Assembly (NCBI GenBank): GCA_965203275.1
Contig: OZ241865.1
Coordinates: forward strand, 1,824,001 to 1,888,000
Origin: Bdellovibrionales bacterium
GTDB taxonomy: Bacteria > Bdellovibrionota > Bdellovibrionia > Bdellovibrionales > JAUICD01
Length of the DNA: 64,000 nt
Reading direction: 5' to 3'
The position numbers were made by a program, and so were the translations under genes. The stretch's first letter is position 1, and each line of letters starts with the position of its first letter. Below, piece by piece: positions 3,398 through 52,685 of the stretch. The notes below the pieces were generated by a model. It saw nothing but the letters and a program-made list of their open reading frames with translations, ran no database searches and was not told the DNA's origin.

Positions 3398-3692
3398 CCT
3401 CAAAGTGAACAGACCTTGGTCACTTTTAGTGAAACAAATCAAATGAAAGAAAAGCCCTCGTGGTGATGAGGGCTTTTTAATTTATAAAAGAAGAAGAAAA
3501 TTATGAAAATGGTTTTTTGTTTGAGTGTGGTTGTTGATAGAAGAACTTTTTCCTTAACATCGTGTTAAAAAACAAGGAGATCCTTCCTACTAAAAGTAAA
3601 CGGACTTTTGAGGCATTGCTCTTTTTAGACAGCGATAGCTGTCAGAGCAATGCCCAAAAGCAACCAGAGGTTGGTTTACTTTTAGTGAAACA
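3398..3692 (+). repeat. Structured repeat family A: degenerate fragment (~3398-3437) and full copy (~3545-3692)
   Basis: tttccttaacatcgtgttaa...gatcc...actaaaagtaaac...gtttacttttagtgaaaca with nested inverted stems. Confidence 0.9.
3448..3478. terminator. Probable bidirectional intrinsic terminator
   Basis: aaaagccctc-gtggtgat-gagggctttt hairpin with A and T tails, between convergent genes. Confidence 0.65.
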
Positions 3693-3694
3693 TG

Positions 3695-4438
3695 CTAGCC
3701 AAAGAACCAACCAACACCTAATGTTACATATAAACCATTGAACTTAAGCTTTTTAGTTTTGAAATCTTCACCTTCACCTGAATCTTCGGCAGGTACAAAC
3801 ACTTCTTCTGCACATTGGGTTTCCTCTGTCCAATTAGAGGTAGTACATTTTAAATCACCAAATGAAAGTAGATCATAACCTGCTTCGACTTTAGCTAAAA
3901 GATTTTGATTGATCTTATAACCTAGCTCTAAACCTGCCTGACCGCCAATGGACTGCCATAAAAATTGACTGCTTTTTAATTTAGTAGTATTATTATCCTG
4001 AGAAAAATTCAAAGACTTCCAAATATCCAAACCTAAGGCAACCCCTACAAAAAACTGATCCAAATGAAATCTATAATTAAGTAAAAGGGCCACCCGATGA
4101 TGAGTGAATTTATATTTATCCGTAACAGTTTCGATTTCAGTTACATAGTCTTTTTCACCTGTAAAGGCCAAACGATAGCGAACACCTAAACCTAAACTAG
4201 CTGCATCCATCATTTGACGATACAGAACATCTGCCCCTAAATGAAAAGGACGATTTTTTTGGTCGCGCCAAGTAGTAGGTTGAGTGACATCTTGAAGGTT
4301 CAATTCCTGCCCAAAATTCATACCAAAATGAGCAGAAATCTCAGCATTCCCTAAAGCCGTATCAGCTAAGCTAAAACTGCCCAGAAAAACAGCTACGTAC
4401 ATTAAACTTTTTATTTGTTTTAAATTGAGACTTAACAT
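3695..4438 (-). CDS. Putative outer-membrane beta-barrel protein
   Basis: Signal peptide, alternating amphipathic strands, C-terminal YVTLGVGWFFG. Confidence 0.7.
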   Translation of the reverse strand: MLSLNLKQIKSLMYVAVFLGSFSLADTALGNAEISAHFGMNFGQELNLQDVTQPTTWRDQKNRPFHLGADVLYRQMMDAASLGLGVRYRLAFTGEKDYVTEIETVTDKYKFTHHRVALLLNYRFHLDQFFVGVALGLDIWKSLNFSQDNNTTKLKSSQFLWQSIGGQAGLELGYKINQNLLAKVEAGYDLLSFGDLKCTTSNWTEETQCAEEVFVPAEDSGEGEDFKTKKLKFNGLYVTLGVGWFFG

Positions 4439-5053
4439 AATAAGTACCCCCTTATTTGTTGATAGTGTTAAAACTTTGTCTTTAATCCAAAGTCAAAAAA
4501 GTCAAAATATCAAAATATAATAATGAATAATGTTTAAATAAATAAGTAAGTTTTTACCTCAAGTAAACACTTAAAATAAATTCTAACGCAAAAAAATTAA
4601 AAAAACAGTCTTAAAATAAAAAACATGCAAATAATTGTCAATAAAATTTATATTTTTGTTTGTTTTGCCTATTTTTTTCTCAAATTTTCTCAATTTCCTC
4701 AAAAATTCCCAAAATTTATGAAAAATCATTCCATTTTGAGACAATAAACTCAACCTTCGTTTACCCCGAATAAACAAATAATTCAAACCTTAAAAACAAA
4801 GGGTTAAAATACTGGACTACAGGCTATATTTGACATGGTGCATTATAAAATAACAAAAAGGCTTGCCTTTTTGTTATTTTTTTAGCTTTTAATGGTAAAT
4901 ATTTGTAAAATAAGGTTTATTTCTATAACTAACTAGTTTAGTATAAACAAAATAATAAAACATGCATGAATAAATAAAATTTAACTTTAGTCATTAATAA
5001 TAATTAAATAAAATTAAACCCAATTAAAACCCAATTCCTAAACGGAGGGAAAC

Positions 5054-5581
5054 TTGAACAGATCCCAAAAAGATCAAGAGATAGCTTTTTTATCTGATCA
5101 ACTTTCTCTTGCTAAAGCTGTATTTGTCATTTGTTTTAAAGGGATGAACGTAGCACAGGTGACCTCTCTTAGAAAGAAATTACATCCTCTCAATGCTAAA
5201 ATGAAAGTTGTAAGAAACACCTTAGCTCGCCTGGCATCTGAAAAGCTCCCTGAAAAAATATCACAGGATTTCAAACAGCAGTTTAAAAATGATAATGCTT
5301 TGGTCTTTGCTCATGGTGAGGTAGGACCTCTTGCAAAACTTTTAAAAAACTTAAGCGAAGATATTCAGTTTTTAGAATTTAAAGCAGGAGTGCTAGAAAA
5401 CAAATTACTAGATCACTCTAAAATACTTTATTTAGCTAATTTGCCTAACAAGCCAGAGCTTCAAGCAAAATTGTTAGGGGTTTTACAAGCTCCTGCCAGT
5501 AAGTTTGTCAGGCAATTGGTATCGCCTATGTCTCAAATATTGCAAGTGATGACAGAATATAATAAAAAAGCTAAAAATTAA
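5054..5581 (+). CDS. rplJ: 50S ribosomal protein L10
   Basis: KVVRNTLARLA, LANLP motifs; TTG start after GGAGG; upstream of rplL. Confidence 0.95.
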   Translation: MNRSQKDQEIAFLSDQLSLAKAVFVICFKGMNVAQVTSLRKKLHPLNAKMKVVRNTLARLASEKLPEKISQDFKQQFKNDNALVFAHGEVGPLAKLLKNLSEDIQFLEFKAGVLENKLLDHSKILYLANLPNKPELQAKLLGVLQAPASKFVRQLVSPMSQILQVMTEYNKKAKN

Positions 5582-5617
5582 AATAAGTAATTTCTAACCC
5601 TTAAGGAGGATTAATCC

Positions 5618-5995: not shown

Positions 5996-6108
5996 CCTCT
6001 GGTACTATTTGATATTTTTAATCGAATATTAACTTTTTGAACTTTTAAAAGGTTCTAGGTTAAATTTTTTGTAAATTTAAAAAAAACACTCTAAAAGAGG
6101 TATCAAAG

Positions 6109-10275: not shown

Positions 10276-10287
10276 AAAGGAGAAAGC

Positions 10288-13200
10288 GTGAGAGATTTAT
10301 TGAACTTTTTTGATAAACCAAAAGATCCTTTAGCATTTAATGCGGTGAAGATTTCCATTGCATCTTCAGAAATGATTCGCAATTGGTCTTATGGAGAGGT
10401 TAAAAAACCTGAAACCATTAATTACAGAACCTTTAAGCCAGAAAGAGATGGGCTTTTTTGTGCTAAAATCTTTGGGCCAATTAAAGACTATGAATGTCTT
10501 TGTGGAAAATACAAAAGAATGAAATATAGAGGTGTGATCTGCGAAAAGTGTGGTGTGGAAGTTTCACAGAGTAAAGTGCGTCGAGAGCGTATGGGACATA
10601 TTGAATTGGCAACTCCTGTAGCTCATATTTGGTTTTTAAGATCTCTACCGAGTCGTATTGGCAATCTTTTAGATATGACCTTAAAAGATGTAGAGAGAGT
10701 ACTTTATTGTGAGGCTCATGTTGTTATAGATCCTTTAGAAACCTCTCTACAAGCTGGAGAAATTTTATCAGAAGAGCAGTATAAAAAGGCAATAGAAAAA
10801 TATGGTGGTGCTTTTAAAACATCAATGGGTGGTGCTGCTGTTCGAGAGCTTTTAAGGAGAATAGACATTAAAACCCTTTCACATCAACTAAGAGAAGAAA
10901 TCAAAAAAAGCAAATCAGAAGCCAATATTAAAAAATTAGTTAAAAGACTTAAGGTTGTGGATGCTTTTAAAGGTTCATCTAACAAGCCTGAGTGGATGAT
11001 GATGGATGTCGTTCCTGTTATCCCACCTGACTTGCGGCCATTGGTTCCTTTAGATGGAGGAAGATTTGCTACATCTGACTTAAATGATCTTTATCGTCGA
11101 GTCATTAATAGAAACAATCGGCTGCGAAGATTGCAAGAGTTATCTGCACCTGAGATTATTATCCGCAACGAAAAGAGAATGCTCCAAGAGGCTGTGGATG
11201 CTTTGTTTGATAATGGTCGTCGAGGCAAGGTCTTTACAGGGCAGAACAAACGTCCTTTGCGATCTTTAAGTGATATGCTCAAAGGGAAGCAAGGCCGTTT
11301 CCGTCAGAATCTTTTAGGTAAAAGGGTTGATTATTCTGGGCGATCTGTGATTGTGGTAGGTTCTCACCTCAAACTTCATCAATGCGGGCTACCTAAAAAA
11401 ATGGCATTGGAATTATTTAAGCCTTTCATTTACAACCGGTTAGAGGAAAAAGGCATTACTTCTACAATTAAACAGGCAAAAAAAATGGTGGAACAAGAGA
11501 AAAAACAAGTCTGGGATGTGTTAGCAGAAGTGGTGAAAGAACACCCTGTCTTACTTAATAGAGCCCCTACTTTACACAGGCTTGGTATTCAGGCTTTTGA
11601 ACCTGTCTTAAATGATACAAAAGCTATTCAATTGCATCCTTTAGTTTGTACTGCTTTCAATGCAGACTTTGATGGTGATCAAATGGCCGTCCATGTACCT
11701 TTATCTATTGAAGCTCAAGTAGAAGCCAGAGTGTTAATGATGTCTACAAACAATATTTTATCACCTGCAAATGGCCGTCCTATTATCAACCCTTCTCAAG
11801 ATGTGGTGTTGGGTTTGTATTGGATGACAAGGGAAAAGGTAGGAGCGAAAGGTTCAGGTCGTCTTTTTGGCAATAGAGAAGAGGTCATGTACGCTTACAC
11901 AGACAAACAGCTTGAGTTACAATCTGGAGTTAAAATTCGAATTGATGGGAAAATGTATAATACGACAGTTGGTCGGGTTATTTTATCAGATATTGTACCA
12001 AGAGAGATTCCTTTTGAGCTTGTTAATCAAGTGATGACCAAAAAACAAATTGCTAATCTTGTAGATGCTTGTTTTAGAGCCAATGGAGGTAAAGCCACTG
12101 TTCTGCTTGCAGACCGCTTAATGCAAACAGGATTTAAGTATTCAACCACCGCAGGAATTTCTATATGTTTAGATGATATGATCATACCAGGTGCAAAGTC
12201 TAAACTCATTGAAGATGCTAATGTTCAGATTCAAGAGATCCAAATGCAATATGATGAGGGGTTGATCACAGAAGGGGAACGTTATAACAAAGTGGTTGAC
12301 CTTTGGGCCCAAACTTCGGACATGGTCGCTAAAAAATTAATGCAAGAGATAGAAACAGAAGAATTTATTGTAGATGGTAAAAATGTCAGAAGTCCTAGTT
12401 TCAATAGTATATTTGTTATGGCAGATTCTGGTGCAAGAGGTTCTGCTGCACAGATTCGCCAGCTAGCAGGTATGAGAGGCTTGATGGCCAAACCTTCTGG
12501 TGAGATCATTGAATCTCCTATTACTGCTAACTTTAGAGAAGGGCTTTCTGTCTTGCAATATTTTATTTCCACACATGGTGCGAGAAAAGGTTTAGCTGAT
12601 ACAGCCTTGAAAACAGCTAACTCAGGATATTTGACTAGAAGACTTGTGGATGCAGCACAAGATTGTACTGTTTTAGAATGGGATTGCCAAACAAAAGATG
12701 GGATCACAGTGCGAGCTTTAACAGATGGAGGTGAAGTCATTGAGTCACTGGGTGAAAGGGTTTTAGGGCGTGTGGCTTTTGAAGACATTGTGGACCTCTA
12801 CTCTAATGAAGTCTTACTTCCTAAGAACCAAGAGATCACAGAAGACGTCGTAGCTAAAATGGATGAAAGAGGTATTGAGTCTGTTCAAATTCGCTCTGTA
12901 TTGACCTGTAGAACCAAGCGAGGTGTTTGTGTGATGTGTTATGGTAGAGATTTAGCACGTGGAAACTTAGTCAACTTAGGAGAAGCTGTAGGAATCATCT
13001 CTGCTCAATCTATTGGTGAGCCTGGCACACAGCTGACAATGCGGACATTCCATTTAGGGGGAACAGCTACTAGAACAGTCGAACAGTCTGTTTGTGAATC
13101 ACGTTATGATGGGAAGGCTCAATTTGAAGATGTCATTTATGTGGAAAATAGAGATAAAAAATTAACTGTAATGAATCGAAATGGTTATTTGATTGTCATA

Positions 13201-14436
13201 GATAAAACAGGTCGAGAGAGAGAGAGATTTTCTTTAAATTATGGATCTGTTTTGAATGTGAAGGATGGGGATAAACTTAAAAAAGGTCAATTATTAGTAG
13301 AATGGGATCCTTACATCACACCTATTGTAACAGAAGTAGCAGGTCGAGTTAAATATATGGATATTGAGGAAGGTGTTACAATGTCAGATCAGGTGGATCC
13401 TGTGACAGGTTTTTCTACAAAGATGATTATTGGAGGTAAGGAAGCTAAATTAAAACCTACTATTATGATTGTGGATAAAAATGGCAAACAAATTAAGTTA
13501 CCCAATAGAGCTTTAGGAGTTCAATATCGCTTACCTATAGGAGCTCAGCTTTTAGTGACAGATGATGCAGAGGTAATAGCAGGAGATGTGATCGCAAAGA
13601 TTCATAGAGAAACCACAAAAACAAAAGATATTACAGGTGGTTTGCCACGTGTGGCAGAGTTATTTGAAGCCAGAAAGCCTAAGGAAGCAGCTATTGTGGC
13701 AGAAATTGATGGTTATGTGAGTTTTGGTAAAGATTTGAAAGGAAAGCAGAGAGTTGTTATTACACCACATGAAGGAGAAGAGAAAGAATATTTAATTCCT
13801 AAAGGTAAGCATATTGCTGTGCATGAAGGTGAGTTTGTGAAAGCAGGAGAGCCATTGATGGATGGTTCTACAAATCCCCATGATATTTTGGCAGTATTAG
13901 GTAGTAAGCAATTATCTTCTTATATGGTCAATGAGATTCAAGAAGTATATAGATTGCAAGGTGTACCTATTAATGATAAGCATATTGAAGTCATTGTCAG
14001 GCAGATGCTCAAAAAGGTGAGGATTATAGATCCTGGTAGTACTTTGTTCTTAGCAGGGGAGCAAGTAGAAAAAATAGATTTTGATAAAGCTAATGAGAAG
14101 GCTGTAAAAGAGGGTACTCAGGTAGCTACTTGTGAGCCTTTATTATTAGGCATCACAAAGGCAAGTTTAAGTACGGACAGTTGGATTTCAGCAGCTTCTT
14201 TCCAAGAGACAACTAAGATTCTGACAGAGGCAGTGATTTCTGGCTCTAAGGATATATTGAGAGGATTAAAAGAAAATATTATTATGGGCCGGTTGATTCC
14301 AGCTGGGACAGGGCTACCTTGTTATAAGAATTGGAAAATTCAAGTGCGTCGTAGAGTAGAAGAAGAATCTCCTCCAGATACTTTATCTTTTGGTCGTGAA
14401 GGAGGTATAGGAGAATCTATGGGTGCGATGTATTAG
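10288..14436 (+). CDS. rpoC: RNA polymerase beta' subunit
   Basis: [12 protein letters not shown], zinc-binding CxC/CxxC motifs. Confidence 0.99.
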
Positions 14437-14439
14437 ACT

Positions 14440-14755
14440 TTGTTTCACTCAAAATGAGCCACACCTCTGGTGTGTTTTTGGGCATTGCTCTGACAGCTAT
14501 CGCTGTCCAAAAAGAGCAATGCCTCAAAAATCCGCTCATTTTGAGTAGGGCGGATCTTCTTGCTTCTGACACCATGTTAGGGAAACAAGATATGCATTTA
14601 TTTCACTCAAAATGCATCATGCCTCTGGCATGTTTAGAGTTTGCTTTACAGGTAATATGGTAGCTATAAAAACTATTTGTAAAGAAAGATTGTTGGGTGT
14701 TCTTCTCTGGGATCCGGGATCCGGGATCCGGGATCCGGCAAGCTGGCATCAGGCA
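14440..14755 (-). repeat. Family A copy (reverse), a terminal fragment, and a GGGATCC heptamer run
   Basis: tgtttcactcaaaatgagc...gctcattttgagtag...catgttagggaaa; (gggatcc)x4 at ~14709-14736. Confidence 0.9.
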
Positions 14756-14789
14756 CTAAAGTATTGGTCGTAATGAATTTTTTCATCTA

Positions 14790-14839
14790 AAAAATTTCCT
14801 CCCAAGCCCTGGCGGGTTTTTAGAAAGGAGGAAATTTTT
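14790..14839 (+). promoter_or_regulatory. Hairpin that sequesters the RBS of the four-helix-bundle gene
   Basis: aaaaatttcctcc (14790-14802) pairs with ggaggaaattttt (14827-14839), ending immediately before the ATG. Confidence 0.6.
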
Positions 14840-15145
14840 ATGACGATGAAAAAATTCAAAACTTATCAATTGGCTACTGAGTTTTATCGTAATTCTAAAA
14901 AATTATATCTGAAAGAGCCTCATAGAAGTCAATTTCGAAGGGCTGTTTCAAGTATTGTACTTAACTTAGCTGAAGGATCTGCTAAACCTACAGCGAAAGA
15001 TCGTAGGAAATTTTATTATATTAGCCTTGGCTCTCTAAGAGAGGTTCAAGCAATATTGGATCTAGAAATTATTGGTTGTATGGAATTAGCAAAACAAGCT
15101 GATAAACTAGGTGCTTTTTTATACAAACTATGTAAGAATACTTAA
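14840..15145 (+). CDS. Four-helix-bundle protein (23S rRNA intervening-sequence protein / bAvd-like)
   Basis: FKTYQLA...QFRRAVSSIVLNLAEGS...RRKFYYISLGSLREVQAILD. Confidence 0.9.
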   Translation: MTMKKFKTYQLATEFYRNSKKLYLKEPHRSQFRRAVSSIVLNLAEGSAKPTAKDRRKFYYISLGSLREVQAILDLEIIGCMELAKQADKLGAFLYKLCKNT

Positions 15146-15164
15146 AGTCAAATTTGACTTTTTC

Positions 15165-15660
15165 TGGGATCCGGCAACAGGTCCTGGAACCCGGGATGCC
15201 AGATCCCCAGGTCCCGGATCCCGGGAGTGAATATCTTGTTTCCTTAACATGGAGTTAAGGGACGAGAGGATCCTCTTTACTCAAAGTGAACAGGCTTTTG
15301 AGGCAATGACCATTTTGCCAATGGCGAAAGCCATTGCGGTCATTGTCCAAAAGTGACCAGAGGTCAGTTCACTTTGAGTGAAACAACTCCTTAACATGGT
15401 GTTTATCCGGGATCCGGCATCAGAAAGAACTCTTTTTCCTTAACATGGAGTTAAGGGACGAAGGGATCCTCCCTACTAAAAGTGGTCAAGCTTTCTAGGC
15501 AATGACCATTTTGCCAATGGCGAAAGCCATTGCGGTCATTGCCAGAAAGTAGCCAGAGGCTAGACCACTTTTAGTGAAACAGAGGCTGGTTTATTTTTAG
15601 TGAAACAAACGCTAGACCACTTTTAGTGAAACAGAGGTCAGTTCACTTTGAGTGAAACAA
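15165..15660 (+). repeat. Heptamer block, two family A copies and three stacked terminal fragments
   Basis: Copies at ~15235-15385 and ~15430-15581; short fragments each ending in gtgaaaca at ~15582-15659. Confidence 0.9.
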
Positions 15661-28899: not shown

Positions 28900-29363
28900 A
28901 TCCCAAACCCCACCCGCCACCCTTCGATTGTTGTTTCACTCAAAATGAACTGGCCTCTGGCCACTTTTGGGTAGCCAGCCCGACGACTTTCGTCGTCGAT
29001 CAAAGGCTGGCTACCTCAAAAGCTTGTTCATTTTGAGTAGAGGAGGATCCTTTTATTCCTCTACACCATGTTAGGGAAACAAGATATACCTCTAAAATGT
29101 TTTTGGAAAGCAAGCTCAATGCAATAAAGGAACTTTTTCCTTAACATGGTGTTAAAAAGCAAGGAGATCCTTCCTACTAAAAGTGGTCAGGCTTTCTAGG
29201 CGATGACCATTTTGCCAATGGCGAAAGCCATTGCGGTCATTGCCAGAAAGTAGCCAGAGGCTAGACCACTTTTAGTGAAACAGCTTAGCCTTTGATCGAC
29301 GGCGGTAGCCGTCGGGCTGGCTATCCAAAAGTGACCAGAGGTCAGTTCACTTTGAGTGAAACA
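28900..29363. repeat. Family B fragment, inverted family A doublet, and a 5'-truncated family A copy
   Basis: Reverse copy ~28933-29080, forward copy ~29133-29282, truncated copy ~29287-29363. Confidence 0.88.
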
Positions 29364-29512
29364 AACTATGTAAAGTTTACAAAACACTATATAACCTTTA
29401 CAACATGGATTGTTTTCGTTTGCAATCGTTTGTAATCTGTGCATAATAAGGCAAAAGGTATTACATTGAAGATTTTTTAATGATTAAAAGACTTAAAGAA
29501 AGGAGAAAAATT

Positions 29513-33582: not shown

Positions 33583-34918
33583 CACAGTCCTGAATTTAGC
33601 CTGCAATCAGAAGGCTTATAAAGATGCGACCAAACCCGTTACAGATCGCTTCGAACAGATGATGGCCAATAATAGCAATGGCAGTCAGAAGGACCAATGT
33701 CAATTGACGCAACAGATGAATGAAGTAACTAAAAAAATCAATCAATCCATCACAGGCAAATGCCATACGGCCATCCTCTCATGTAAAACTACTTGTGGTA
33801 TGGCCCTGAAAAATGCAAAAGTAGCCCACGCTGCTGCTATTGAACCTACGGCCAAAGCTATGTTCTGGGCAGAGATGACCGCTATTAGCAAGAGTATGAC
33901 AAGCTGTGCTAGCAAATGGGCCAGTGTTAAAAAAAACAGCGATCTTCAGATAGCTCGTAATACAGATGCCATTAAGCAAGCTAAAGACTGCGTAGATGGT
34001 TTGGGTGGATCCGGTGAGTTGAGCGATTCTTCTAATTGCAATCAACTTCCACTAGCTCAAAAAAACCTCTGTCAAGAACTAGGTGAGGTGGCCTTCTGCA
34101 AACAACATCCAAAGATAGATTTTTGCCGTAGTTTGTCAGATAGCCTCTTTGCCGGCAAAACAGATACCCCCGGACCTGGTCACACGAATGCCAATGCCAT
34201 CGCCTCAAATCCCCTAAAACAAACCCTAACAGGGGGGGGGGACGAAAGTCTAGGCAATTCATCGCAACAAGACTTAGCCACATCTGAAATATGTCAACAA
34301 CATCCAGATAGCCCGCAGTGTAAGAGAGATGAGTGTAATTCTCTACCAACTTCAACGACTCGTGGTTTATGCCATTCAGAGGGTATAGAAAAAACTTGCA
34401 AATATGTCCCTCAATTGCCTCGATGTAAAAAAAGAGCAGCCGATTTAGCTAAGAATAAGGTCGACCCTTTAAGTGGTCATACAAGTTTAGGATTAAAAGG
34501 TGGTTTTGCTGGTGGTGGAAGTGCTGGTGGTTCTGCTGGTGGAGGTTCTAGCAGTGGAGGAGGCTCTGGCAGTGGTGGCTTAGGTGGCAGTGACTTTGCA
34601 AGTGGAGATGGTGCAGAAGGATTAAAGCCACTGACAGGATCATCTGTGATAAAAATGGATAAGGACGGGAATGTCCATGCTCTTGTGAATGGACGATATA
34701 CAAATTTAGGTAGTGGCAGGCGAGCAAGGAATCTTCACAAAAAAATATCAGGTTTAAGTTATAGTGATTATCTATTGCGGAAGCCTCAAAAGCGAGGACC
34801 TGCAAGTGTCCAAGCAGTTAAAAGTGAAGATGTTACACCTGCAAATGGTTTAAGCAACTTCCAAAAAGTCTCCCGAACAATAAAGCTATTGTTCCCTACA
34901 TTACTTTACTCAAAATAA
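33583..34918 (+). pseudogene. 3' part of the IS-interrupted Cys/Gly-rich secreted protein gene
   Basis: In frame with 30598-30857; the joined product would be ~531 aa, with Cys repeats, a Gly/Ser linker and RGPAS near the C-terminus. Confidence 0.8.
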
Positions 34919-35790
34919 TCTAGCCGGGATCCGGGATCCGCAACCCGGCATCAGATCCTAAAAATGAAATTTTTCCTTAACATGGAGTTAAAAAACGAAG
35001 AGATCCTCCTTACTAAAAGTAAACGGACTTTTGAGGTGATGACCATTTTATCGACGGCGTGAGCCGTCGTGGTCATCACCCAAAAGTGACCAGAGGTCAG
35101 TTTACTTTTAGTGAACCAAATGTCACACCTGCAAATGGTTTAAGCAACTTCCAAAAAGTCTCCCGAACAATAAAGCTATTGTTCCCTACATTACTTTACT
35201 CAAAATAATCTAGCCCGGATCCGGGATCCGCAACCCGGCATCAGATCCTAAAAATGAAATTTTTCCTTAACATGGAGTTAAAAAACGAAGAGATCCTCCT
35301 TACTAAAAGTAAACGGACTTTTGAGGTGATGACCATTTTATCGACGGCGTGAGCCGTCGTGGTCATCACCCAAAAGTGACCAGAGGTCAGTTTACTTTTA
35401 GTGAACCAAATGTCACACCTGCAAATGGTTTAACCAACTTCCAAAAAGTCTCCCGAACAATAAAATTGCTTTTCCCTAATTTGGTTCCGTTAGTTCCTTC
35501 AAAGTAATCATTAAGTTTATCCGGGATCTGGGACCCGGGATCCGGCAGAACTTTTTCCTTAACATGGTGTTAAAAAACGAAGAGATCCTTCCTACTAAAA
35601 GTGGTCAGGCTTTCTAGGTGATGACCATTTTATCGACGGCGAAAGCCGTCGTGGTCATCGCCAGAAAGTGACCAGAGGTCAGACCACTTTTAGTGAACCA
35701 AATGTCACACCTGCAAATGGTTTAAGCAACTTCCAAAAAGTCTCCCGAACAATAAAGCTATTGTTCCCTACATTACTTTACTCAAAATAA
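34830..35790 (+). repeat. Tandem array of ~290-bp units (gene 3' end + heptamer block + family A copy)
   Basis: tgt(t/c)acacctgcaaatgg at 34831, 35121, 35411 and 35703. Confidence 0.92.
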
Positions 35791-35809
35791 ATTGCTATCT
35801 TGATCCTTG

Positions 35810-36890
35810 GGCTACTTTTAGTGAACTAACTCCCTAACCCCACCCCCCGCCCTTCGATCTGCTTTTTCATTTGTATGTTTTTTATGAGTGGAATGCGGAG
35901 TCAGGCTTCCGAAGTCCTCAACCTTCGCTTGCTTTGGGGAGCAAGCGGGTCTGCGGAAGATCTCCAGCCTGCCTCCGCATCCCACTCATAATATTCATGT
36001 TTATTTGAGATTTACGCAGAATCTAAAAGAAAATAAAAAAAACAAAAAAACTCTTTTTCCTTAACATGTTGTCAAGAGACGAAGGGATCCTCCTTACTAA
36101 AAGTGGTCAAGCTTTCTAGGCGATGAGCATTTTATCGACGGCGTGAGCCGTCGTGGTCATCGCCAGAAAGTGACCAGAGGTCAGACCACTTTTAGTGAAA
36201 CAAAACAAGCTGATAAATTAGGAGCTTTTTTATACAAGTTATGTAAAAATACTTAAAGTCAAATTTGATTATCATTCCCGGGATCTGGCAATCAGGCAAC
36301 CCGGCATCAGTTCCCGGGATGCCTGCTTGCCTGATCCCGGGAATAAATATCTTGTTCCCTTAACATCATGTCAGAGAACGAATGGATCCTTCTTACTAAA
36401 AGTAAACGGATTATCCCTAACCCCACCCACCGCCCTTCGATTGTTGTTTCACTCAAAATGAACTGGCCTCTGGCCACTTTTGGGTAGCCAGCCCGACGGC
36501 TCACGCCGTCGTAAAAGGCTGACTACCTCAAAAGCTTGTTCATTTTGAGTAGAGGAGGATCCTTTTATTCCTCTACATCATGTTAAGGAAAATTTCCTTT
36601 ATTACCTCAAGAGCAAGCTCAATTTGCGGAAGATCTTCAGTCTCCCACTGCCCCATCCTCCACCTAATTATTTTTTGTTTGAGAGTTACGCAGAATCTAA
36701 AAAAAATAAAAAAACAAAAAAAGAACATCGTATTTATCCGGGATCTGGGATCTGGGATCCGGGATCAGGCATCAGTTCCCGGGATGCCTGCTTGCCAGAT
36801 CCCGGGAATAAATATCTTGTTTCCTTAACATTTCACTTGAAATGAACCACACATTTGTTTCCCTAGAATTGAAGTGACCAGAGGTCTGTT
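35810..36890. repeat. Mixed cluster: family B, family A copies, heptamer blocks and a four-helix-bundle 3' fragment
   Basis: Family B ~35830-36045; A ~36053-36202; A reverse ~36446-36592; heptamers ~36277-36342 and ~36737-36806. Confidence 0.85.
36203..36256 (+). pseudogene. 3' fragment of the four-helix-bundle gene
   Basis: Encodes KQADKLGAFLYKLCKNT*, matching the end of 14840..15145. Confidence 0.85.
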
Positions 36891-38557
36891 CACTTGGAGT
36901 GAGAAGAATATCCTCTTTGGTAACTATGACGTGTAGCGGTGATAGTGACAACGTAAATCAAATGCAGAATCACAAAACTTGAAACATATTCTAAACCTCC
37001 ACCACCAAATCCATAAGAATGCAACCCTGCCCCTAAAACAAAATTAACTCCATACCAAGCCATCAATATCAGTGAAAAACAAATAGAACCCCACGCTAAA
37101 AATCCAAAAGGACCAAGCCATCCAGCCAGTCGCCCATGCACCACGGCAATATATCCTAACAGAGCAACCAATGCCCATACCTCTTTAGGGTCCCAGTCCC
37201 AAAAGCGTCCCCAAGAATAATCAGCCCATATTCCACCTAAAACAGTACCAGCAGCCAATAAGACCACTCCAACTTGCATGGCATAATAAGTCGCATTTGT
37301 TAAAGAGAGTACATTCGTTTGAAACAATTTAGGATTTTTTTGGGGATCTTTAAAAAAATATCCAAGCCCAATATTCGACAAAACAAAAGAAAGGAAAAAA
37401 GCAGAATACCCAAGTGTAATAGTCATCACATGTACAATAAGCCAAAGATTGCTATTTAAAACAGACATGAGCGGTTGCAGAGAAGGATCTAGAACAGTGG
37501 GAGCCATATCTGCTGTAATCAAACAAAGACAAGCTACAACACAAGCAGAGAAAACATAATAAATACGTCTTTGCCATAGCTCAAAAAGCAAAGCAAAAAA
37601 GACAGCTCCCCATGCCACCCAAATAACAGATTCGTACATATTAGAAACAGGAGGTCTCTCCATTAAATAAATTCTCAAAATAAATCCGTAAGTGTGTAAT
37701 AAAAAGGCTAACATTAAAGTTAAAAAGCCTGGATACCTTCCCCATTGCCAACCTAAAAGCACTGTCAAAAAAAATATAGCTCCTATTAGATAAAGCACCC
37801 AAGCCCATTTAAAAGGAGATAAAGAGTTATAATGTAGCTCTACATCTATTGGAGTTAGGCTAGGGTAGTGAGAAGGATTTTGTGCCTTTGCAAAAACAAT
37901 AAAATCATCGACAGCCTCTTGCAAAGAAGATACATCCTGACTGTCAATACTTTGAATAAAGGTTTTTGCCAATACTTGAAATTTTGCTTTTTCATTTTGA
38001 TTAAATTGAGAAAAGTTTTTCCATGTTTCTGTATCTTTTTGAGGGAGTAAAGCCAATGCTTGACCTGAAGTAATAGCTACAAAAGTACGCAATTGAGCTT
38101 CTAATCTTTCGACTGCTTGAAAATAATTATTGAGTTTGATTTTATTGTCTTTTTTATTTTGTAGTTCTTGAAGAATCAAACTTAATCTTGGACTAGCAGA
38201 GATCACATTGACAGAAAAATATTTTTGAGTCTCATTTAATTTAAGATTTTGCTTTAAATCTAATCTAGGAATTTCAATAATATCTACTCCAGACCAGTGT
38301 GAAGGCATTAAAATCCATGTAAAAACAACCTCAGAAGCTGCCTTTGCAGTATAATGAGATCTGCCGTAAATAAGCTGTAAAGATTCTCTGGCAAAAGTAC
38401 CAAAAGGCTTCACCCGTCCACCAGATTGAATAGGCAAGCGATTAAGTGTAGAAGCCATATCATCAGCTAAGCTTTCCGTAGAGAAAATTAAAATTGTCAA
38501 GCTCAAAAGGCCAACAAATAAAAACCTTAAAAAAGATTGGTATTGAAAATAACTCAT
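36890..38557 (-). CDS. ccsA: Cytochrome c biogenesis protein (system II, CcsA domain)
   Basis: GGRVKPF, RPPVSNMYES, WADYSWGRFWDWDPKE, GLHSYG. Confidence 0.92.
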   Translation of the reverse strand: MSYFQYQSFLRFLFVGLLSLTILIFSTESLADDMASTLNRLPIQSGGRVKPFGTFARESLQLIYGRSHYTAKAASEVVFTWILMPSHWSGVDIIEIPRLDLKQNLKLNETQKYFSVNVISASPRLSLILQELQNKKDNKIKLNNYFQAVERLEAQLRTFVAITSGQALALLPQKDTETWKNFSQFNQNEKAKFQVLAKTFIQSIDSQDVSSLQEAVDDFIVFAKAQNPSHYPSLTPIDVELHYNSLSPFKWAWVLYLIGAIFFLTVLLGWQWGRYPGFLTLMLAFLLHTYGFILRIYLMERPPVSNMYESVIWVAWGAVFFALLFELWQRRIYYVFSACVVACLCLITADMAPTVLDPSLQPLMSVLNSNLWLIVHVMTITLGYSAFFLSFVLSNIGLGYFFKDPQKNPKLFQTNVLSLTNATYYAMQVGVVLLAAGTVLGGIWADYSWGRFWDWDPKEVWALVALLGYIAVVHGRLAGWLGPFGFLAWGSICFSLILMAWYGVNFVLGAGLHSYGFGGGGLEYVSSFVILHLIYVVTITATRHSYQRGYSSHSK

Positions 38558-40459: not shown

Positions 40460-40570
40460 ATCATTTCCTTTATTTGGTCCTTTTATTATCTCAATTTGGG
40501 CCTTTTATTATCTAAATTCGTTGATCTTCGTCTACCCGTACGTACCTCTTTTAGAAATACGTGAGTTGTG

Positions 40571-41565
40571 TCCCTCAAAATTTCCCTTCCTTGAATATTC
40601 TAATCTAATTTCGTATATTCACCAGGTCAAGCTCATTTCAGAGAATAGGAAGGTCAATTTTGAGGTGATCGGCTAGAAATTCACTACTAAAATTTATGTT
40701 TACCTCAATTTCTTTGTACATATTATTTTCACTTCCTTATTTGGTCCTAATTATTATCTAAATTCGTTGATCTTCGTCGTTTCACTAAAAAATAAACCAG
40801 CCTCTGGCTACTTTTGGGTAGCCAGCCCGACGGCTACCGCCGTCGATCAAAGGCTGGCTACCTCAAAAGTCCGTTTACTTTTAGTAGAGAGGATCTCTTC
40901 GTCTCTTAACACCATGTTAAGGAAAAAGTTCCTTCTATCAATTTTTCCCTTCCTTGAATATTCTAATCTAATTTCGTATATTCACCAGGTCAAGCTCATT
41001 TCAGAGAATAGGAAGGTCAATTTTGAGGTGATCGGCTAGAGATTCACTACTAAAATTTGTGTTTACCTCAATTTCTTTGTACATATTTTGTTTCCCTCAA
41101 AATTTCCCTTCCTTGAATATTCTAATTTAATTTCGTATATTCACCAGGTCAAGCTCATTTCAGAGAATAGGAAGGTCAATTTTGAGGTGATCGGCTAGAG
41201 ATTCACTACTAAAATTTGTGTTTACCTCAATTTCTTTGTACATATTTTGTTTCCCTCAAAATTTCCCTTCCTTGAATATTCTAATTTAATTTCGTATATT
41301 CACCAGGTCAAGCTCATTTCAGAGAATAGGAAGGTCAATTTTGAGGTGATCGGCTAGAGATTCACTACTAAAATTTGTGTTTACCTCAATTTCTTTGTAC
41401 ATATTTTGTTTCCCTCAAAATTTCCCTTCCTTGAATATTCTAATCTAATTTCGTATATTCACCAGGTCAAGCTCATTTCAGAGAATAGGAAGGTCAATTT
41501 TGAGGTGATCGGCTAGAAATTCACTACTAAAATTTATGTTTACCTCAATTTCTTTGTACATATTA
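40571..41565. repeat. 159-bp unit in five copies, interleaved with a family A copy
   Basis: tccctcaaaatttcccttcc at 40571, 41093, 41252, 41411, and a partial start near 40945. Confidence 0.92.
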
Positions 41566-41618
41566 TTTTCACTTCCTTATTTGGTCCTAATTATTATCTA
41601 AATTCGTTGATCTTCGTC

Positions 41619-42070
41619 GTTTCACTAAAAAATAAACCAGCCTCTGGCTGTTTTTGGGCAATCAGCCCGACGGCTCTCGCCGTCGATCAAAGGCTGATTG
41701 CCTCAAAAATCTGTTTATTTTTAGTAGAAAGGATCCTCTCGTCTCTTAACTACATGTTAAGGAAAAAGCTCCTTCTGATGTTTGCTCTGACAGCTTACGC
41801 TATCTAAAAAGAGCAATGCCTTTGTTTCACTCAAAATAAATCATGCCTCTGGCATGTTTTCTGGCAGTTAGCCCGACGGCTACCGCCGTCGATCAAAGGC
41901 TAACTGCCTAGAAAATCCATTTATTTTGAGTAGGGAGGATCTCCTCATTTTTTAACACCATGTTAAGGAAACAAGCTATTCGCTTCATCCCTGCCTGTCT
42001 GCCGGATCCCAGATCCCAGATCCCAGATCCCGGATCCCAGATTGACATGATGTTAAGGAAAAAGTTCCTT
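41619..42070 (-). repeat. Two family A copies (reverse), a fragment and a CAGATCC heptamer run
   Basis: gtttcactaaaaataaacc at 41619; tgtttcactcaaaat at 41823; (cagatcc)n at ~42005-42042. Confidence 0.88.
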
Positions 42071-42081
42071 CTTACACTCGT

Positions 42082-43077
42082 TTATTTTGAGTGAGATGAT
42101 AAGGGCTGTGGTTTAAAGTCCTTTGCAACATTCATGGTAGCACTGTTACCTGTCACCTGAATAACAAACAACCCCTTTTTCTCTGCATAAAGATTAGCAT
42201 TCTTTTCACAATTTAAATAGGCAACTGCTCCATACAAAATTTTGCGATTAGCCTCTTTGTTATATTGTTTAAATATATTAAACCTTTTGAATGCTTCATC
42301 TATATCTTTCTTTTTTAAGTATTTCTTGGCTTCTACAGCTACCATCTCTTTCCCATTGATAGCTAATATATCTATCTCATATCTGCGATGAGGACTCTCA
42401 TCTTTAACATGAATGGAGGTTGTCTCTACTTCAATGCCTTGCTCTTTAAGAAGCCTCACTGTCCCTGTATTAGCTAAAGCCTCAACAAACTTACCCCATT
42501 GAAGACCTGAATCTCCTATAAACTTATTTAAGGATTTTTGTAATTGTTTTTGAGACTCTTCTGCCTCCTTAATCGCCTGCTCTGCTTTTGCCATGTTCTT
42601 TTTTCGAATCTCCTCATTTCTATCCTGAGCATCTGTTACCTTTTTAACCCCATCTGCTACCTTTTTAATCTTCTGATCTAGCTCTTCCATGTTCTTTTTT
42701 CGAATCTCCTCATTCCTATCCTGAGCATCTGTTACCTTTTTAATCTTCTGATCTAGCTCTGCCATGCTCTTTTTTCGAATCTCCTCATTCCTGTCTTGAG
42801 CATCTGCTACCTTTTTAATCCTCTGATCTAGATCTGCCATGCTCTTTTTTCGAATCTCCTCATTTCTATCTTGAGCATCTGTTACCTTTTTAACTCCATC
42901 TGTTACCTTTTTAATCTTTTGATCTAGCTCTGCCATGCTCTTTTTTCGAATCTCCTCATTTCTATCCTGAGCATCTGCTATCTTTTTAATCTTTTGGTTG
43001 ACTTCTCTACTGCCTTTTTCTTGAGTCTCTGCAAGGCTTTTAATGCTTTTTAATACATCTTTTATTGTTGTTGTCAT
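42082..43077 (-). CDS. Coiled-coil repeat protein with C-terminal PD-(D/E)XK nuclease-like domain
   Basis: Five DAQDRNEEIRKK repeats; WGKFVE...YEIDILAING..VAVEAK..LYGAVA. Confidence 0.75.
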   Translation of the reverse strand: MTTTIKDVLKSIKSLAETQEKGSREVNQKIKKIADAQDRNEEIRKKSMAELDQKIKKVTDGVKKVTDAQDRNEEIRKKSMADLDQRIKKVADAQDRNEEIRKKSMAELDQKIKKVTDAQDRNEEIRKKNMEELDQKIKKVADGVKKVTDAQDRNEEIRKKNMAKAEQAIKEAEESQKQLQKSLNKFIGDSGLQWGKFVEALANTGTVRLLKEQGIEVETTSIHVKDESPHRRYEIDILAINGKEMVAVEAKKYLKKKDIDEAFKRFNIFKQYNKEANRKILYGAVAYLNCEKNANLYAEKKGLFVIQVTGNSATMNVAKDFKPQPLSSHSK

Positions 43078-43142: not shown

Positions 43143-43560
43143 AAATTTCCTCCTAAGCCCTGGCGAGTTTAAAATGAAATTTTTCCCTTACATATTTCAC
43201 TCAAAATGCATCATGCCGTCTGCTTCACTAAAAGTGGTCTGGCCTCTGGCCACTTTCTGGTTGCCAGCCGAAGGCTATTCGCCTTCTCAAATGCTGGCAA
43301 CCTAGAAAGCCTGACCACTTTTAGTAGAAAGGATCCTTTCCTCTTTTAACACCATGTTAAGGAAAATTTCTTTTATTACCTCAAGAGCAAGCGGGTTTAC
43401 AAATGAAACTCTTTTTCCTTAACATGATGTTAAGAAACGAAGGGATCCTCCTACTAAAAGTAAACGGACTTTTGAGGTAGCCAGCCTTTGATCGACGGCG
43501 AAAGCCGTCGGGCTGGCTACCCAAAAGTGACCAGAGGTCAGTTTACTTTTAGTGAAACAA
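43143..43560. repeat. Four-helix-bundle leader fragment and inverted family A doublet
   Basis: aaatttcctcctaagccctggcg resembles 14792-14814; reverse copy ~43224-43366; forward copy ~43411-43559. Confidence 0.88.
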
Positions 43561-43562
43561 CC

Positions 43563-43638
43563 TGGCAGGGCAGGCAGGATTCGAACCCACGGCCTACGGA
43601 TTTGGAGTCCGTCGCTCTACCAACTGAGCTACTACCCT
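43563..43638 (-). tRNA. tRNA-Trp (CCA)
   Basis: AGGGTAGTAGCTCAGTTGGTAGAGCGACGGACTCCAAATCCGTAGGCCGTGGGTTCGAATCCTGCCTGCCCTGCCA. Confidence 0.95.
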
Positions 43639-47316: not shown

Positions 47317-47340
47317 ACATAACCTCAAAAGGAAATAAAA

Positions 47341-49164: not shown

Positions 49165-50190
49165 AAGTGGTCTATTTCACTCAAAGTGAACTGACCTCTG
49201 GTCACTTTCTGGTTGCCAGCCGAAGGCTACCGCCTTCTCAAATGCTGGCAACCTAGAAAGCCTGTTCACTTTGAGTAAGAAGGATCTCTTCATTTCTTTA
49301 CTCCATGTTAAGGAAAAAGTTCCTTCTTACGCCTTGAATGTTGCCTGCAATGGCTTTCGCCATTGGCAAAATGGTCATCACCTAAAAAATCCGCTCATTT
49401 TGAGTAGGGAGGATCCTCTCGTCTCTTCACTACATGTTAAGGAAACAAGCTATCCGCTTCATCCCTGCCTGACTGCCGGATCCCAGATCCCGGATCCCGG
49501 AAAAGATCAAATTTGACTTTAAGTATTTTTACACAGTTTATATAAAAAAGCTCCTAATTTATCTGCTTGTTTTGCTAATTCCATGTAGCCACTAAATTCC
49601 AAGTCTAGTATTGCCTGAACTGTTTTTCACTAAAAGTAAACTAGCCTCTGGCCACTTTTGGATGATGACCACGACGACTGTCGTCGTCGATAAAATGGTC
49701 ATCACCTCAAAAATCCGTTTACTTTTAGTAGGGAGGATCCCTTCGTCTCTTGACCACATGTTAAGGAAAAAGAGTTTCATTTGTAAGCCCGCTTGCTCCC
49801 CAAAGCAAGCGAAGGTTGAGGACTTCGGAAGCCTGCACCCGCATTCCACTCATAAAAAACATACAAATGAAGAAGCAGAATCGAAGGGTGGCGGGTGGGG
49901 TTAGGGAGTTCGTTGGTTCACTCAAAGTGAACTGACCTCTGGTCACTTTTAGTAGAGAGAATCTCCTCGTCTCTTAACTACATGTTAAGGAAAAAAAAGT
50001 TCTTTCTGATGCCGGGTTCCCGGATCACGGATCCCGGGATCCGGGATCTGATGGCGGGTTGCCAGATTCCAGATCCCGGGATCCGGGATCTGATGGCGGG
50101 TTGCCAGATTCCAGATCCCGGGATCCGGGATCTGATGGCGGGTTGCCAGATTCCAGATCCCGGATAAACAAAATGTTAGGGAAACAAGAT
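49153..50190 (-). repeat. Cluster of family A copies, family B, heptamers and a 42-bp tandem repeat
   Basis: A at ~49176-49320, ~49345-49448, ~49622-49772; B at ~49780-49910; gatctgatggcgggttgccagattccagatcccgg x3 at ~50046-50164. Confidence 0.85.
49519..49620 (-). pseudogene. 3' fragment of a four-helix-bundle paralog
   Basis: Encodes VQAILDLEFSGYMELAKQADKLGAFLYKLCKNT*. Confidence 0.85.
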
Positions 50191-51997
50191 GTTTATTTTC
50201 TTTTTTCCATAAAGCACCACTACCGCGTCCTTGAGCTTCATATCCATTTTCCTTTAGTCTGTTGCGAATTGTCATATCCGAAATGTTATCAAACTCTGTT
50301 ATTCCAGCGTCCTTTATTTGCTTGAAAGTTAAACCTTCCGGATGATCTGCAAAGAGAGCTTCTAACTTGCGACTAATTATTGTCTTTTCTTCATCTTTTT
50401 TTGTTTGATGGCCTTGCTGATGCCATAAAGCCCACGGACCGTGTCCTTGGACTTCATATCCATTTTCCTTTAGTCTTCTTTTAATTGTCATATCTGAAAT
50501 GTTACTAAACTCTGTTATTCCAGCGTCCTTTATTTGCTTGAAAGTTAAACCTTCCGGATGATTTGCAAAGAGATCTTCTAACTTGCGACTAATTATTGCT
50601 TTTTCTTCATCTTTTTTTGTTTGATGGCCTTGCTGATGATTCCATAAAGCACCTGCACGTCCTTGAGCTTCATATCCATTTTCCTTTAGTCTTCTATTAA
50701 TTGTCATATCTGAAATGTTAGCAAACTCTGATATTCCAGCGTCCTTTATCTGCTTGAAAGTTAAACCTTCCGGATGATTTGCAAAGAGATCTTCTAGCTT
50801 ACGAGTAATTATTGCCTTTTTTTCATCTTGTCTTGTTTGATGATTCCATAAAGCACCCGGACCGAGTCCTTGAGCTTCATATCCATTTTCCTTTAGTCTG
50901 TTGTAAATTATATAATCTGAAATGTTAGCAAACTCTGGTATTCCAGCCTTTATCTGCTTGAAAGTTAAACCTTCCGGATGATTTGCAAAGAGATCTTCTA
51001 GCTTACGAGTAATTATTGCCTTTTTTTCATCTTGTCTTGTTTGATGATTCCATAAAGCACCCGGACCGAGTCCTTGAGCTTCATATCCATTTTCCTTTAG
51101 TCTGTTGCGAATTGTCCCATCCGAAATGTTATCAAACTCTGTTATTCCAGCGTCCTTTATTTGCTTGAAAGTTAAACCTTCCGGATGATCTGCAAAGAGA
51201 GTTTCTAGTTTAAGAGTAATTATTTCTTTTTCTTCTTGAGATTGAAGGTAATGGTTTCTCTTTGATATGCTTAATAAAGTTTGTCTGGCTTGTTCAATCT
51301 TATGAAACAAATCTTCTTTTATTTTTATGGGAGGTTTATTTAAAAGCTCTGATAAAAAATAGCTCATACCAGTATCCACACTAAAAGTTGCTAAAAAGAA
51401 ATGTTCTGGAAATATAGAGATAAAAAAAGTTTTATTATCTGAATTATTCCGCATATATCTAATCTCTTCCTCTTTCTCTTGAACAGCTCTTTCAAAGAAT
51501 GCAATTGCACTTTCATCATACATAAGGTTAGGTACAGAAGATATATCCCCTAAATGAAGGATGAGCAGATCATTATACTTAAATAAGAGGGAGTCACGAG
51601 GCTGAATATCTAACTGACTTAAAAGAAATTCTTGAACTTCTCTTAAAATATTTAGTTCTTTCAAAATAAGACCTAAGGCATTAAAAGTAGGAGTGTCATC
51701 TATAATATCTGTATCATTCAAGTAATTGAGTTTTTCGTTTGAAGACTCTACTCTTGTCAAAGTTGCCAGAAGAATATGTTTTGTATTCACTGTTTGAGAC
51801 CCAGAAACATAAGCTATTAACGAAGCTCGAGATAACATATATCGAGAGTTGGGAGCAAGCTCTCTTAAAGTTCTCTCGTCAAGTTGTTGTTTGTCCATCA
51901 TAAGGCTTTCGGCACAAGCCCATAGAGAACCGCTGGCAGTCAGCAAAATAGTAAAAAATAAGCATAAAAGATATTTTTTCATCATAAGGAAAGCCAT
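49985..51997 (-). CDS. Secreted protein with Clp-N-like region and five ~70-aa wHTH-like repeats; tail read through into repeat DNA
   Basis: Signal peptide; VNTKHILLA and FPEHFFLA; repeat KLEDLFANHPEGLTFKQIK...ISDxTIxxRLKENGYEAQG..GALW. Confidence 0.7.
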   Translation of the reverse strand: MAFLMMKKYLLCLFFTILLTASGSLWACAESLMMDKQQLDERTLRELAPNSRYMLSRASLIAYVSGSQTVNTKHILLATLTRVESSNEKLNYLNDTDIIDDTPTFNALGLILKELNILREVQEFLLSQLDIQPRDSLLFKYNDLLILHLGDISSVPNLMYDESAIAFFERAVQEKEEEIRYMRNNSDNKTFFISIFPEHFFLATFSVDTGMSYFLSELLNKPPIKIKEDLFHKIEQARQTLLSISKRNHYLQSQEEKEIITLKLETLFADHPEGLTFKQIKDAGITEFDNISDGTIRNRLKENGYEAQGLGPGALWNHQTRQDEKKAIITRKLEDLFANHPEGLTFKQIKAGIPEFANISDYIIYNRLKENGYEAQGLGPGALWNHQTRQDEKKAIITRKLEDLFANHPEGLTFKQIKDAGISEFANISDMTINRRLKENGYEAQGRAGALWNHQQGHQTKKDEEKAIISRKLEDLFANHPEGLTFKQIKDAGITEFSNISDMTIKRRLKENGYEVQGHGPWALWHQQGHQTKKDEEKTIISRKLEALFADHPEGLTFKQIKDAGITEFDNISDMTIRNRLKENGYEAQGRGSGALWKKENKHLVSLTFCLSGIWNLATRHQIPDPGIWNLATRHQIPDPGIWNLATRHQIPDPGIRDPGTRHQKELFFP

Positions 51998-52031
51998 ATT
52001 ATAGGATTTACTTCTTTATAGCAAGTATTTT

Positions 52032-52685
52032 TTTTCACTCAAAATGCATCATGCCTCTGGTTCACTAAAAGTAAACCAACCTCTGGTTGCTTTTGGATAG
52101 CCAGCCCGACGACTTTCGTCGTCGATCAAAGGCTGGCTACCTCAAAAGTCCGTTTACTTTTAGTAGGGAGGATCCTCTCGTCTCTTTACACGATGTTAAG
52201 GGTTTGTCTCACTAAAAGTAAACTGACCTCTGGTCACTTTTGGGTAGCCAGCCCGACGGCTACCGCCGTCGATCAAAGGCTGGCAACCTCAAAAGTCCGT
52301 TTACTTTTAGTAAAGAGGATCCCTTCGTTTTTTTAACACGATGTTAGGGAAAAAGTTCAGTTTTAGGACCTGATGCCGGGTTGCCGGATCCCAGATCCCG
52401 GATAAACATCATGTTAAGGAAAAAGTTCCTTTATCGCAAACTGCTTGCTCTTGAGGTAATAAAAGAAATTTTCCTTAACATGATGTAAAAGAATAAAAGG
52501 ATCCTCCCCTACTCAAAATGAGTGGATTTTTTAGGTGTTGCCTATTTTGTCAAAGGCGAAAGCCTTTGCAGGCAACACCAAAAAACACACCAGAGGTGTG
52601 GCTCATTTTGAGTGAAATGTTAAGGAAAAAGTTCAGTTTTAGGACCTGATGCCGGGTTGCCGGATCCCAGATCCCGGGTAAACAC
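52032..52685. repeat. Cluster of family A copies (two reverse, one forward) with heptamers
   Basis: Copies at ~52061-52201, ~52204-52356 and ~52468-52618. Confidence 0.88.

Follow-up and report, generated by a model that had tools for sequence, protein, structure and literature searches.

How a structured, non-coding repeat multiplies in a bacterial chromosome with no enzyme assigned to it is a question posed by bcr1-like elements at large, and it is raised again by a 64,000-nucleotide stretch of a Bdellovibrionales genome (contig OZ241865.1, positions 1,824,001 to 1,888,000; here called the window). A preliminary description of the window had reported a dispersed repeat of about 150 bp in some 25 copies, and 29 non-overlapping matches, 21 of them full-length, are now placed between positions 3541 and 52618. 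The family is young and very abundant in two closed genomes, where its joints can be read in hundreds. Our reading, which is tentative and falls a little short of an even case, is that this repeat of about 1,400 copies spreads selfishly as a folded single strand, more likely of DNA, by means of host enzymes, and that its tail likely pairs with the target.

A repeat family with a covarying three-way junction

A structured pattern for the element matched 16 times in the window and not once in 100 shuffles. The host genome (G000; 2.57 Mb, single contig, 35% GC) was searched with a profile hidden Markov model (HMM) built from 17 window copies, giving 1,417 non-overlapping matches in 436 clusters, 740 of them full-length, which together occupy 6.4% of the genome; the shuffled genome gave zero matches. 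The element is almost wholly intergenic, only 10 of the 1,417 matches lying within long open reading frames (ORFs), and its full-length copies are found on both strands (383 plus, 357 minus). Orientation relative to the flanking genes is close to even (89, 77, 76 and 62), while neighbouring copies are co-oriented in 822 of 981 cases. Repeated 20-mers make up 17% of this genome, and sponge metagenomes are among the samples that contain its sequence. As the preliminary description had supposed, the family is not a recognised one, since an Rfam search gave no match at gathering score; the scan of the window returned two tRNAs alone, with sub-threshold chance matches at 34900-37000.

From 5′ to 3′ the element consists of a T-rich lead-in, a head of the form CCTTAACAT-NNN-GT.AA, a purine and then a pyrimidine linker, a three-way junction, and a tail formed of a G and A/C-rich bases. 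One window copy serves as the example:

34975..34991, plus strand: head, with near-invariant CCTTAACAT, three free bases and a relaxed GT.AA half; a sequence motif without covariation
35012..35112, plus strand: three-way junction
35012-35024/35100-35112, plus strand: outer stem P1, 13 bp, followed by a 3-nt linker
35028-35086, plus strand: P2 arm of 6+11+7 bp with two bulges and a GNNA loop at 35059-35062
35087-35099, plus strand: P3, 5 bp with an AGA triloop
35113..35121, plus strand: 3′ tail, a G and about seven A/C-rich bases; putative guide

The four to five stems that had been described separately do covary, the top mutual-information pairs among 675 unique copies giving P1, a three-helix P2 arm and P3 (5-6 bp), yet they all belong to a single, Y-shaped three-way junction with 3, 0 and 0 unpaired bases between its helices. 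That one fold is kept while its letters change is borne out by 27 aligned copies from three genome bins, in which 96.0% of cells pair against 81.8% after shuffling, pairing falls to 32-48% when the partners are slid, and 31 of 49 pairs show compensatory change on both sides. All 11 stem pairs quoted in support of the fold occur in the window, the six self-complementary stem pairs in 7, 2, 2, 3, 2 and 2 copies and the five side hairpins in 10, 2, 2, 2 and 2. Among the 740 full-length copies, 78.6% have a perfect outer stem; with the arms shuffled the figure is 13.0%. Single-copy folding gives z = -9.0 as DNA and -8.6 as RNA. Normalised mutual information reaches 0.74 between the P1 arms, which lie 75 nt apart, and is 0.23 between the 5′ arm and the nearer P2 loop; linkage tracks the fold rather than distance.

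Two features that had been placed ahead of the fold behave differently. The head, described as TTAACA-N3-GTTAA, is not a covarying stem: none of its six pairs is compensatory, one of them is broken in about half of 673 unique copies, and the head is conserved as sequence and not as structure. The candidate roles of sigma-70 promoter and XerD site were rejected for it, as a partner box was found for neither. The GATCC motif is not fixed either, the sister genome of the same genus (G001) having AATCT, AGTCT and TATCT at the same place, and a small hairpin around GATC has no support in G000 (0.54 vs 0.67 pairs) and is weak in G001 (1.71 vs 1.41 pairs).

Joints, tails and the spread of paired copies

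The geometry of insertion is, like the fold and the strand that folds, established: one 3′ end that is fixed to within a few bases, one ragged 5′ end with passengers carried upstream, and no target duplication. In the 419 of 1,045 tails with flanks that are unique, the bias towards A/C extends to about 7 nt beyond the conserved G, while upstream flanks are common to copies for 10-25 nt, and for at least 200 nt in 154 of 1,027. No target motif was found at 472 distinct joints, 192 of which are host-type. Direct microhomology between tail and target is in excess (3.88 vs 3.36 nt, matched in 0 of 300 permutations; 126 host-type joints, linkers of at least 4 nt), whereas pairing of the tail with the reverse complement of the target is not (2.83 vs 2.90), and the positions of new joints are spread over 2-10 nt. 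Comparison of 17 filled and empty site pairs, about half of them in multi-copy flanks, gave a loss of 0-82 nt and no short target duplication.

The element inserts into itself to a large extent, with 605 of the 1,045 tails running into element sequence, and 3′-truncated copies are followed by a new head in 299 of 386 cases and by unique DNA in only 10. Tandem units such as the 290-bp array at 34823-35790 are attributed to local re-insertion. There are 41 chimeras in which two tails meet at P1, in 40 contexts, against two two-head forms, and the two-tail forms are joined on only 13 bp of homology; the pattern used to find chimeras is insensitive in G001. The two-tail chimeras may record inversions in G000, a genome in which both GC skew and the orientation of genes are scrambled and no clear-cut origin or terminus can be made out. 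Copies also interrupt other repeats, paralogous genes and three CRISPR arrays, at G000:245703, 369403 and 2266379, where tails are joined 4-9 nt into the array repeat.

A link between the tail and the outer-stem allele, and the recurrence of the tail at homologous sites, are likewise established. Where a head half meets a tail on the opposite strand, the joint lies on one nucleotide, directly after the invariant CCTTAACAT, in 115 of 116 cases; 97 different upstream flanks are involved, and 47 of 94 such flanks also precede intact heads. The tails at these precise joints belong to one P1 allele class in 90 of 98 cases, compared with 354 of 947 other tails (p = 4e-27). A head-specific nick is disfavoured by this dominance of one class, because a nick would serve all lineages. 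Dispersed tails that are alike at +4 to +18 and diverge within 25 nt have the P1 3′ allele in common in 37.6% of 2,329 pairs where 14.7% is expected, and 78 of 111 groups exceed expectation, the pairs not being independent of one another. In addition, five tails lie at one site in paralogues of a four-helix-bundle gene, with flanks that are 82-85% alike and 87-90% like the empty paralogues. We infer from these sequence comparisons that the element carries its 3′ flank along and that this flank selects homologous targets, the 5′ end probably being resolved second. Although the paralogue cases could be imitated by gene conversion, it is a poor fit to joints on 9-13 bp and to the 41:2 asymmetry of the chimeras.

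Selection on the fold can be read from the way copies have spread. No rare base is present in 614 of the 740 copies, yet nearest neighbours are mostly several bases apart, so that the copies are best viewed as young mosaics of few alleles. Among 661 parsed copies with 300 stem haplotypes, paired copies disperse more: multi-locus haplotypes account for 49 of 83 that are fully paired, 23 of 78 with G·T pairs only, 1 of 16 with A·C only and 9 of 123 mixed, with p = 0.009 to 4e-6 in tests of single helices and p = 0.06, by haplotype, for the contrast of G·T with A·C alone. The dispersal of G·T above A·C identifies the top strand as the one that folds. The claim that structure is under selection is therefore upheld, but what is selected appears to be the copying of the element itself and not an RNA function for the host, and the element likely behaves as a selfish one. 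The family offers a fitness landscape of base pairing inside a single genome (paired > G·T > A·C), and it cautions that a repeat may covary strongly without being a host RNA.

The copies in the window are as follows:

3541..3693, plus strand: full solo copy; against the empty paralogous site at G000:1812347 it is an insert of about 157 nt, with no duplication and no deletion
14439..14592, minus strand: full copy, its tail abutting the stop of a 1382-aa ORF (10288-14436)
15230..15660, plus strand: array of full copies 15230-15386 and 15428-15581, then short 3′ stubs with different outer-stem alleles
28931..29086, minus strand: full copy, head-to-head with the 29127 copy
29127..29365, plus strand: full copy with a 5′-truncated copy (29285-29365) joined to its tail
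34823..35790, plus strand: three full copies in a tandem array with a period of about 290, every tail running into a repeated segment from the 3′ end of ORF 33500-34918, an upstream passenger
36047..36203, plus strand: full copy with a tail that meets a four-helix-bundle gene at its 3′ end; five diverged paralogues have the same joint
36349..36412, plus strand: 3′-truncated copy
36444..36599, minus strand: full copy with a chimeric middle stem
36823..36905, plus strand: half of a head that meets a tail stub of the opposite strand at 36831/36832 (the window's example of the precise tail-to-head joint), then more stubs
40777..40934, minus strand: full copy
41617..41979, minus strand: two full copies (41617-41774, 41821-41979)
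43220..43372, minus strand: full copy, head-to-head with the 43406 copy
43406..43560, plus strand: full copy, its tail adjoining a tRNA gene (43566-43638)
49172..49998, minus strand: array of full copies 49172-49325 and 49623-49777 and three partial ones
52059..52360, minus strand: direct tandem pair of full copies, the tail of one running into the head of the other
52465..52618, plus strand: full copy with a tail of the head-homing class

Other dispersed repeat modules share arrays with the element (35820-36045, 36410-36440 and 36600-36720), among them CTAACCCCACC-led and GAGGACTTCGGAAG-led units. The window also holds coding-like tandem repeats at 40566-41705, 42550-43029 and 50207-51265, with units of 159, 75-96 and 216 nt, and a 105-aa HNH gene present in three copies (60929-61246).

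The moving strand and its possible enzymes

The make-up of loops and pairs bears on the nature of the folded strand. The P2 loops comprise 418 GNRA, 246 GNYA, 60 GNNNA and 14 others, the commonest allele of each helix is purely Watson-Crick, and double transversions are needed in 14 of 26 variable pairs in G000 and 14 of 25 in G001. Loops of the c(GNNA)g type are extra stable in DNA, and in DNA one arm of a stem is correctable from the other. Together the loops, the P3 triloop, the Watson-Crick alleles and the double transversions lean to single-stranded DNA; folding energies do not separate DNA from RNA. Among the sequencing-run contigs, element sequence occurs in seven runs, and none of the matches listed bridges an element site.

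A mechanism along these lines can be proposed. The top strand would be freed together with part of the upstream DNA and would end in a short 3′ overhang, its fold and a protein bound at the head motif giving protection. The overhang would pair with a target over a few to about 20 bases, fixing the 3′ joint, and the 5′ part would be joined wherever homology was found; in doing so the element would replace 0-80 bases, make a tandem duplicate of its own locus or write over an older copy. Most tails would come to match other copies, so that the family would home into itself and its stem alleles would be shuffled; recombinants with unmatched arms would seldom spread again, and selection on copying would thereby maintain the covariation. 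If the tail does direct insertion, the outcome is homology-programmed integration by a 150-base unit. That the element stands for a new class of bacterial selfish element, needing no enzyme of its own and combining the 3′ flank as a heritable, self-rewriting guide with host machinery, a library of stems and scrambling of the chromosome, is possible but rather doubtful. In such a class the folded junction would be single-stranded, each copy would keep a memory of its last target and home to similar sites, and pairing would be selected for as stems are combined.

The searches of G000, which covered named families and not the whole proteome, returned no Y1 transposase (PF01797, Y1/RAYT), Y2 (PF04986, whose control also matched nowhere), Rep_trans (PF02486), IS110-type DEDD recombinase, reverse transcriptase (RT; no RVT_1 match and no tblastn or phmmer trace of the RTs of G001), group II intron (no intron 3′ end), archaeo-eukaryotic (AEP) primase, RecT or ERF. 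The sister genome gave three matches in the RT search; it has one RT of a group II intron and another RT besides, together with five 3′ ends of introns, and its single Y1 gene, an IS200 type, has hairpins of its own and lies away from any copy of the element. An intact 187-aa tyrosine recombinase consisting of the catalytic domain only lies at G000:2047789-2048352 and has a 62% orthologue in the element-free genome G002, no tyrosine recombinase being matched in the likewise element-free G003 or in G004, a genome of a second genus; a XerD-like protein with degenerate motifs is found at G000:312139-313062. The flanks of the resident IS256, IS1634-like and serine-recombinase elements are unlike the ends of the element. 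The window's 552-aa DDE transposase (31729-33387), which we take to be IS1634-like, has six copies, and one sequencing-run (X6) contig covers both of its flanks without the transposase; a serine recombinase family also has six copies (G000:1034771 and five more) and is present in G001.

Several candidate partners were set aside. Rpn nucleases give 16 matches in G000 but also 16 in G003; they were found in 4 of 41 genomes, all in this family, and a 53-member cluster of Rpn/YhgA-like ORFs in G000, many of them fragments, is strongly adjacent to elements. The four-helix-bundle gene (PF05635; 14 matches in G000, 19 in G001 and 19 in G004 proper) has a same-strand copy downstream in 10 of 11 cases in G000, yet neither of the two cassettes read in G004 contains the element, and the gene is therefore regarded as a separate mobile cassette; in the window an ORF of this kind (14840-15145) lies inside heptamer arms of the GGGATCC type (14689-15225). 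A TnpB-type zinc-finger match proved to be a Cas12a-like gene. Its product, which from its motifs we take to be a 1,325-aa Cas12a-like protein with a C-terminal zinc ribbon, is presumably followed by cas1-like and cas2-like ORFs and an array (G000:238802-244554), and an orthologue-sized ORF is found in G001 only, near 2592483.

The search of related genomes advised in the preliminary description points to a narrow distribution. With 20 candidates scored per genome, model R1 matched three of the 151 order genomes and one of 151 in a sample of the phylum, the element not being found in the 148 other genomes of the order or in 150 of the phylum sample. The matches are in G000, in G001 (150 of 150 candidates scored) and, 12 in number, in G004, where they lie on three small contigs (C1, C4 and C11). 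Contig C11 carries a second rplN that is 98% like that of G001, the genome's own rplN being 79%, and the G004 matches are for that reason likely contamination from a G001-like organism, which confines the family to one genus among the genomes searched. Pattern scans gave 0 matches in viral sequences and two in metagenomes, both without HMM support; an insensitive scan of all species genomes gave seven loci in one record.

A number of points weigh against a folded DNA strand homing by its tail. No intermediate has been observed and no enzyme identified, nor does G000 yield a RecT or ERF single-strand annealing protein or an AEP primase. More than 8 nt of flank is required for some of the shared joints, which could have arisen by ordinary conversion between paralogous genes; the precise tail-to-head joint was seen 0 times beside 85 intact heads in the stretches of G001 that were read. 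Mismatched chimeras are also younger, which makes the dispersal gradient an upper bound, and haplotypes with G·T pairs only still disperse (23 of 78). Replichore bias is absent (384 of 740, p = 0.32; the best split is matched by 66 of 200 shuffles), a test to which the scrambled GC skew of G000 is relevant. Most loops are GNRA, and in G001 their majority is larger; loops of the GNNA type fold in RNA as well (PMC6125677), and a tail of 7-8 nt fits the stalling of RNase II 5-7 nt before a duplex (PMC3293843). The last of these, together with the fixed 3′ end, the tolerance of top-strand G·T above A·C, the lack of replichore bias and the RTs and intron ends of G001, would also be explained if the mobile strand were RNA. 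In that scheme the element would be a bacterial counterpart of a SINE (short interspersed element): read-through transcripts would be cut back as far as the outer stem's base, and an RT acting in trans would copy them by target-primed reverse transcription. We consider this unlikely. G000, which has the youngest copies, is the genome without RVT_1, intron 3′ end or RT trace; GNYA loops and pentaloops make up 41% of the total, there is hardly a fixed G·U allele, double transversions are common, and target-site duplications were not found. Upstream passengers are often sense gene ends (16 sense, 5 antisense), but head-side neighbours match this bias (101:47) and it was dismissed.

Two further explanations were weighed. 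The element might be the passenger of a lost, unassembled or unrecognised HUH (Y1/Y2) or tyrosine enzyme, as in REP/BIME- or IS91-like systems, with the head as its nick or termination site; tandem arrays, self-insertion and flank capture are predicted by the TnpA-REP model (PMC3333891, section 25), the precise joint falls right after the invariant part of the head, G000 is scored 90% complete and a tyrosine recombinase is intact. This is improbable, given joints that vary over 2-10 nt without a target motif, the confinement of the precise joint to one allele class, the absence of Y1_Tnp, Y2_Tnp and Rep_trans matches noted above, the separate hairpins of the IS200-type Y1 of G001, which has no element close by, and the orthologue of the recombinase in an element-free genome. 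Slightly less probable still is a host-useful RNA (terminator, mRNA stabiliser or regulatory RNA) that spread once and is now reshuffled by RecA gene conversion. The intergenic location, the stable RNA fold and the presence of recA and mutS suit it, but gene orientation is nearly even, copies break repeats, paralogous genes and CRISPR arrays, 148 other genomes of the order gave no element, and the chimeras are asymmetric and formed on 9-13 bp of homology.

Comparison with known systems

A search of the literature, with subscription papers and supplements outside its coverage, gave no description of the element. Its closest counterpart in form is bcr1 of the Bacillus cereus group, which PMC3184786 describes as a dispersed repeat of about 155 bp with a branched fold kept by compensatory changes and no assigned transposase. 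In that account bcr1 has 5-bp flanking direct repeats and was shown to be transcribed, whereas the present element lacks a duplication and differs further in its one fixed end, its upstream passengers, its self-nesting and its copy number of about 1,400. With REP, BIME and REPIN elements it has in common hundreds of intergenic structured copies, mosaic arrays, self-insertion, flank capture and a single-strand model (PMC3333891 and PMC3116915). It is unlike them in having no RAYT in the genome, a 100-nt junction and head in place of a 20-40 bp palindrome, freely varying stems, no fixed cleavage dinucleotide and a choice of target by inherited tail.

One fixed and one ragged end with passengers, tandem arrays and the lack of a target duplication recall IS91/ISCR elements and Helitrons, the capture of flanks being described in PMC3333891, section 25. 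Neither a Y2, for which the control also matched nowhere, nor a Rep protein was found in G000, the fixed end is ragged over 2-10 nt and there is no target tetranucleotide, unlike IS91 and Helitrons. SINEs and retroplasmid-type elements resemble it as structured non-coding units with an A-rich 3′ tail and a 5′ join by microhomology, and differ from it in that its host is bacterial, with no RT in G000, no target duplication, passengers upstream and a homing tail that is inherited. Like the miniature inverted-repeat transposable elements (MITEs) NEMIS/Correia, ERIC and RUP, which PMC3184786 treats, it is under 200 bp, non-autonomous and stably folded, but it has no terminal inverted repeats (head and tail alleles show no matching pattern), no target duplication and ends unlike those of the resident IS256 and IS1634-like elements. 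The head partly resembles a XerD half-site; unlike integron attC and Xer dif sites, it has no partner arm and the joints are imprecise. As a non-autonomous structured repeat the element is of a broad kind already known, and the chances are about even that its way of moving is new for bacteria. It works somewhat like a BIME and resembles bcr1 in size and covariation, while failing the defining tests of both as well as those of MITEs and IS91.

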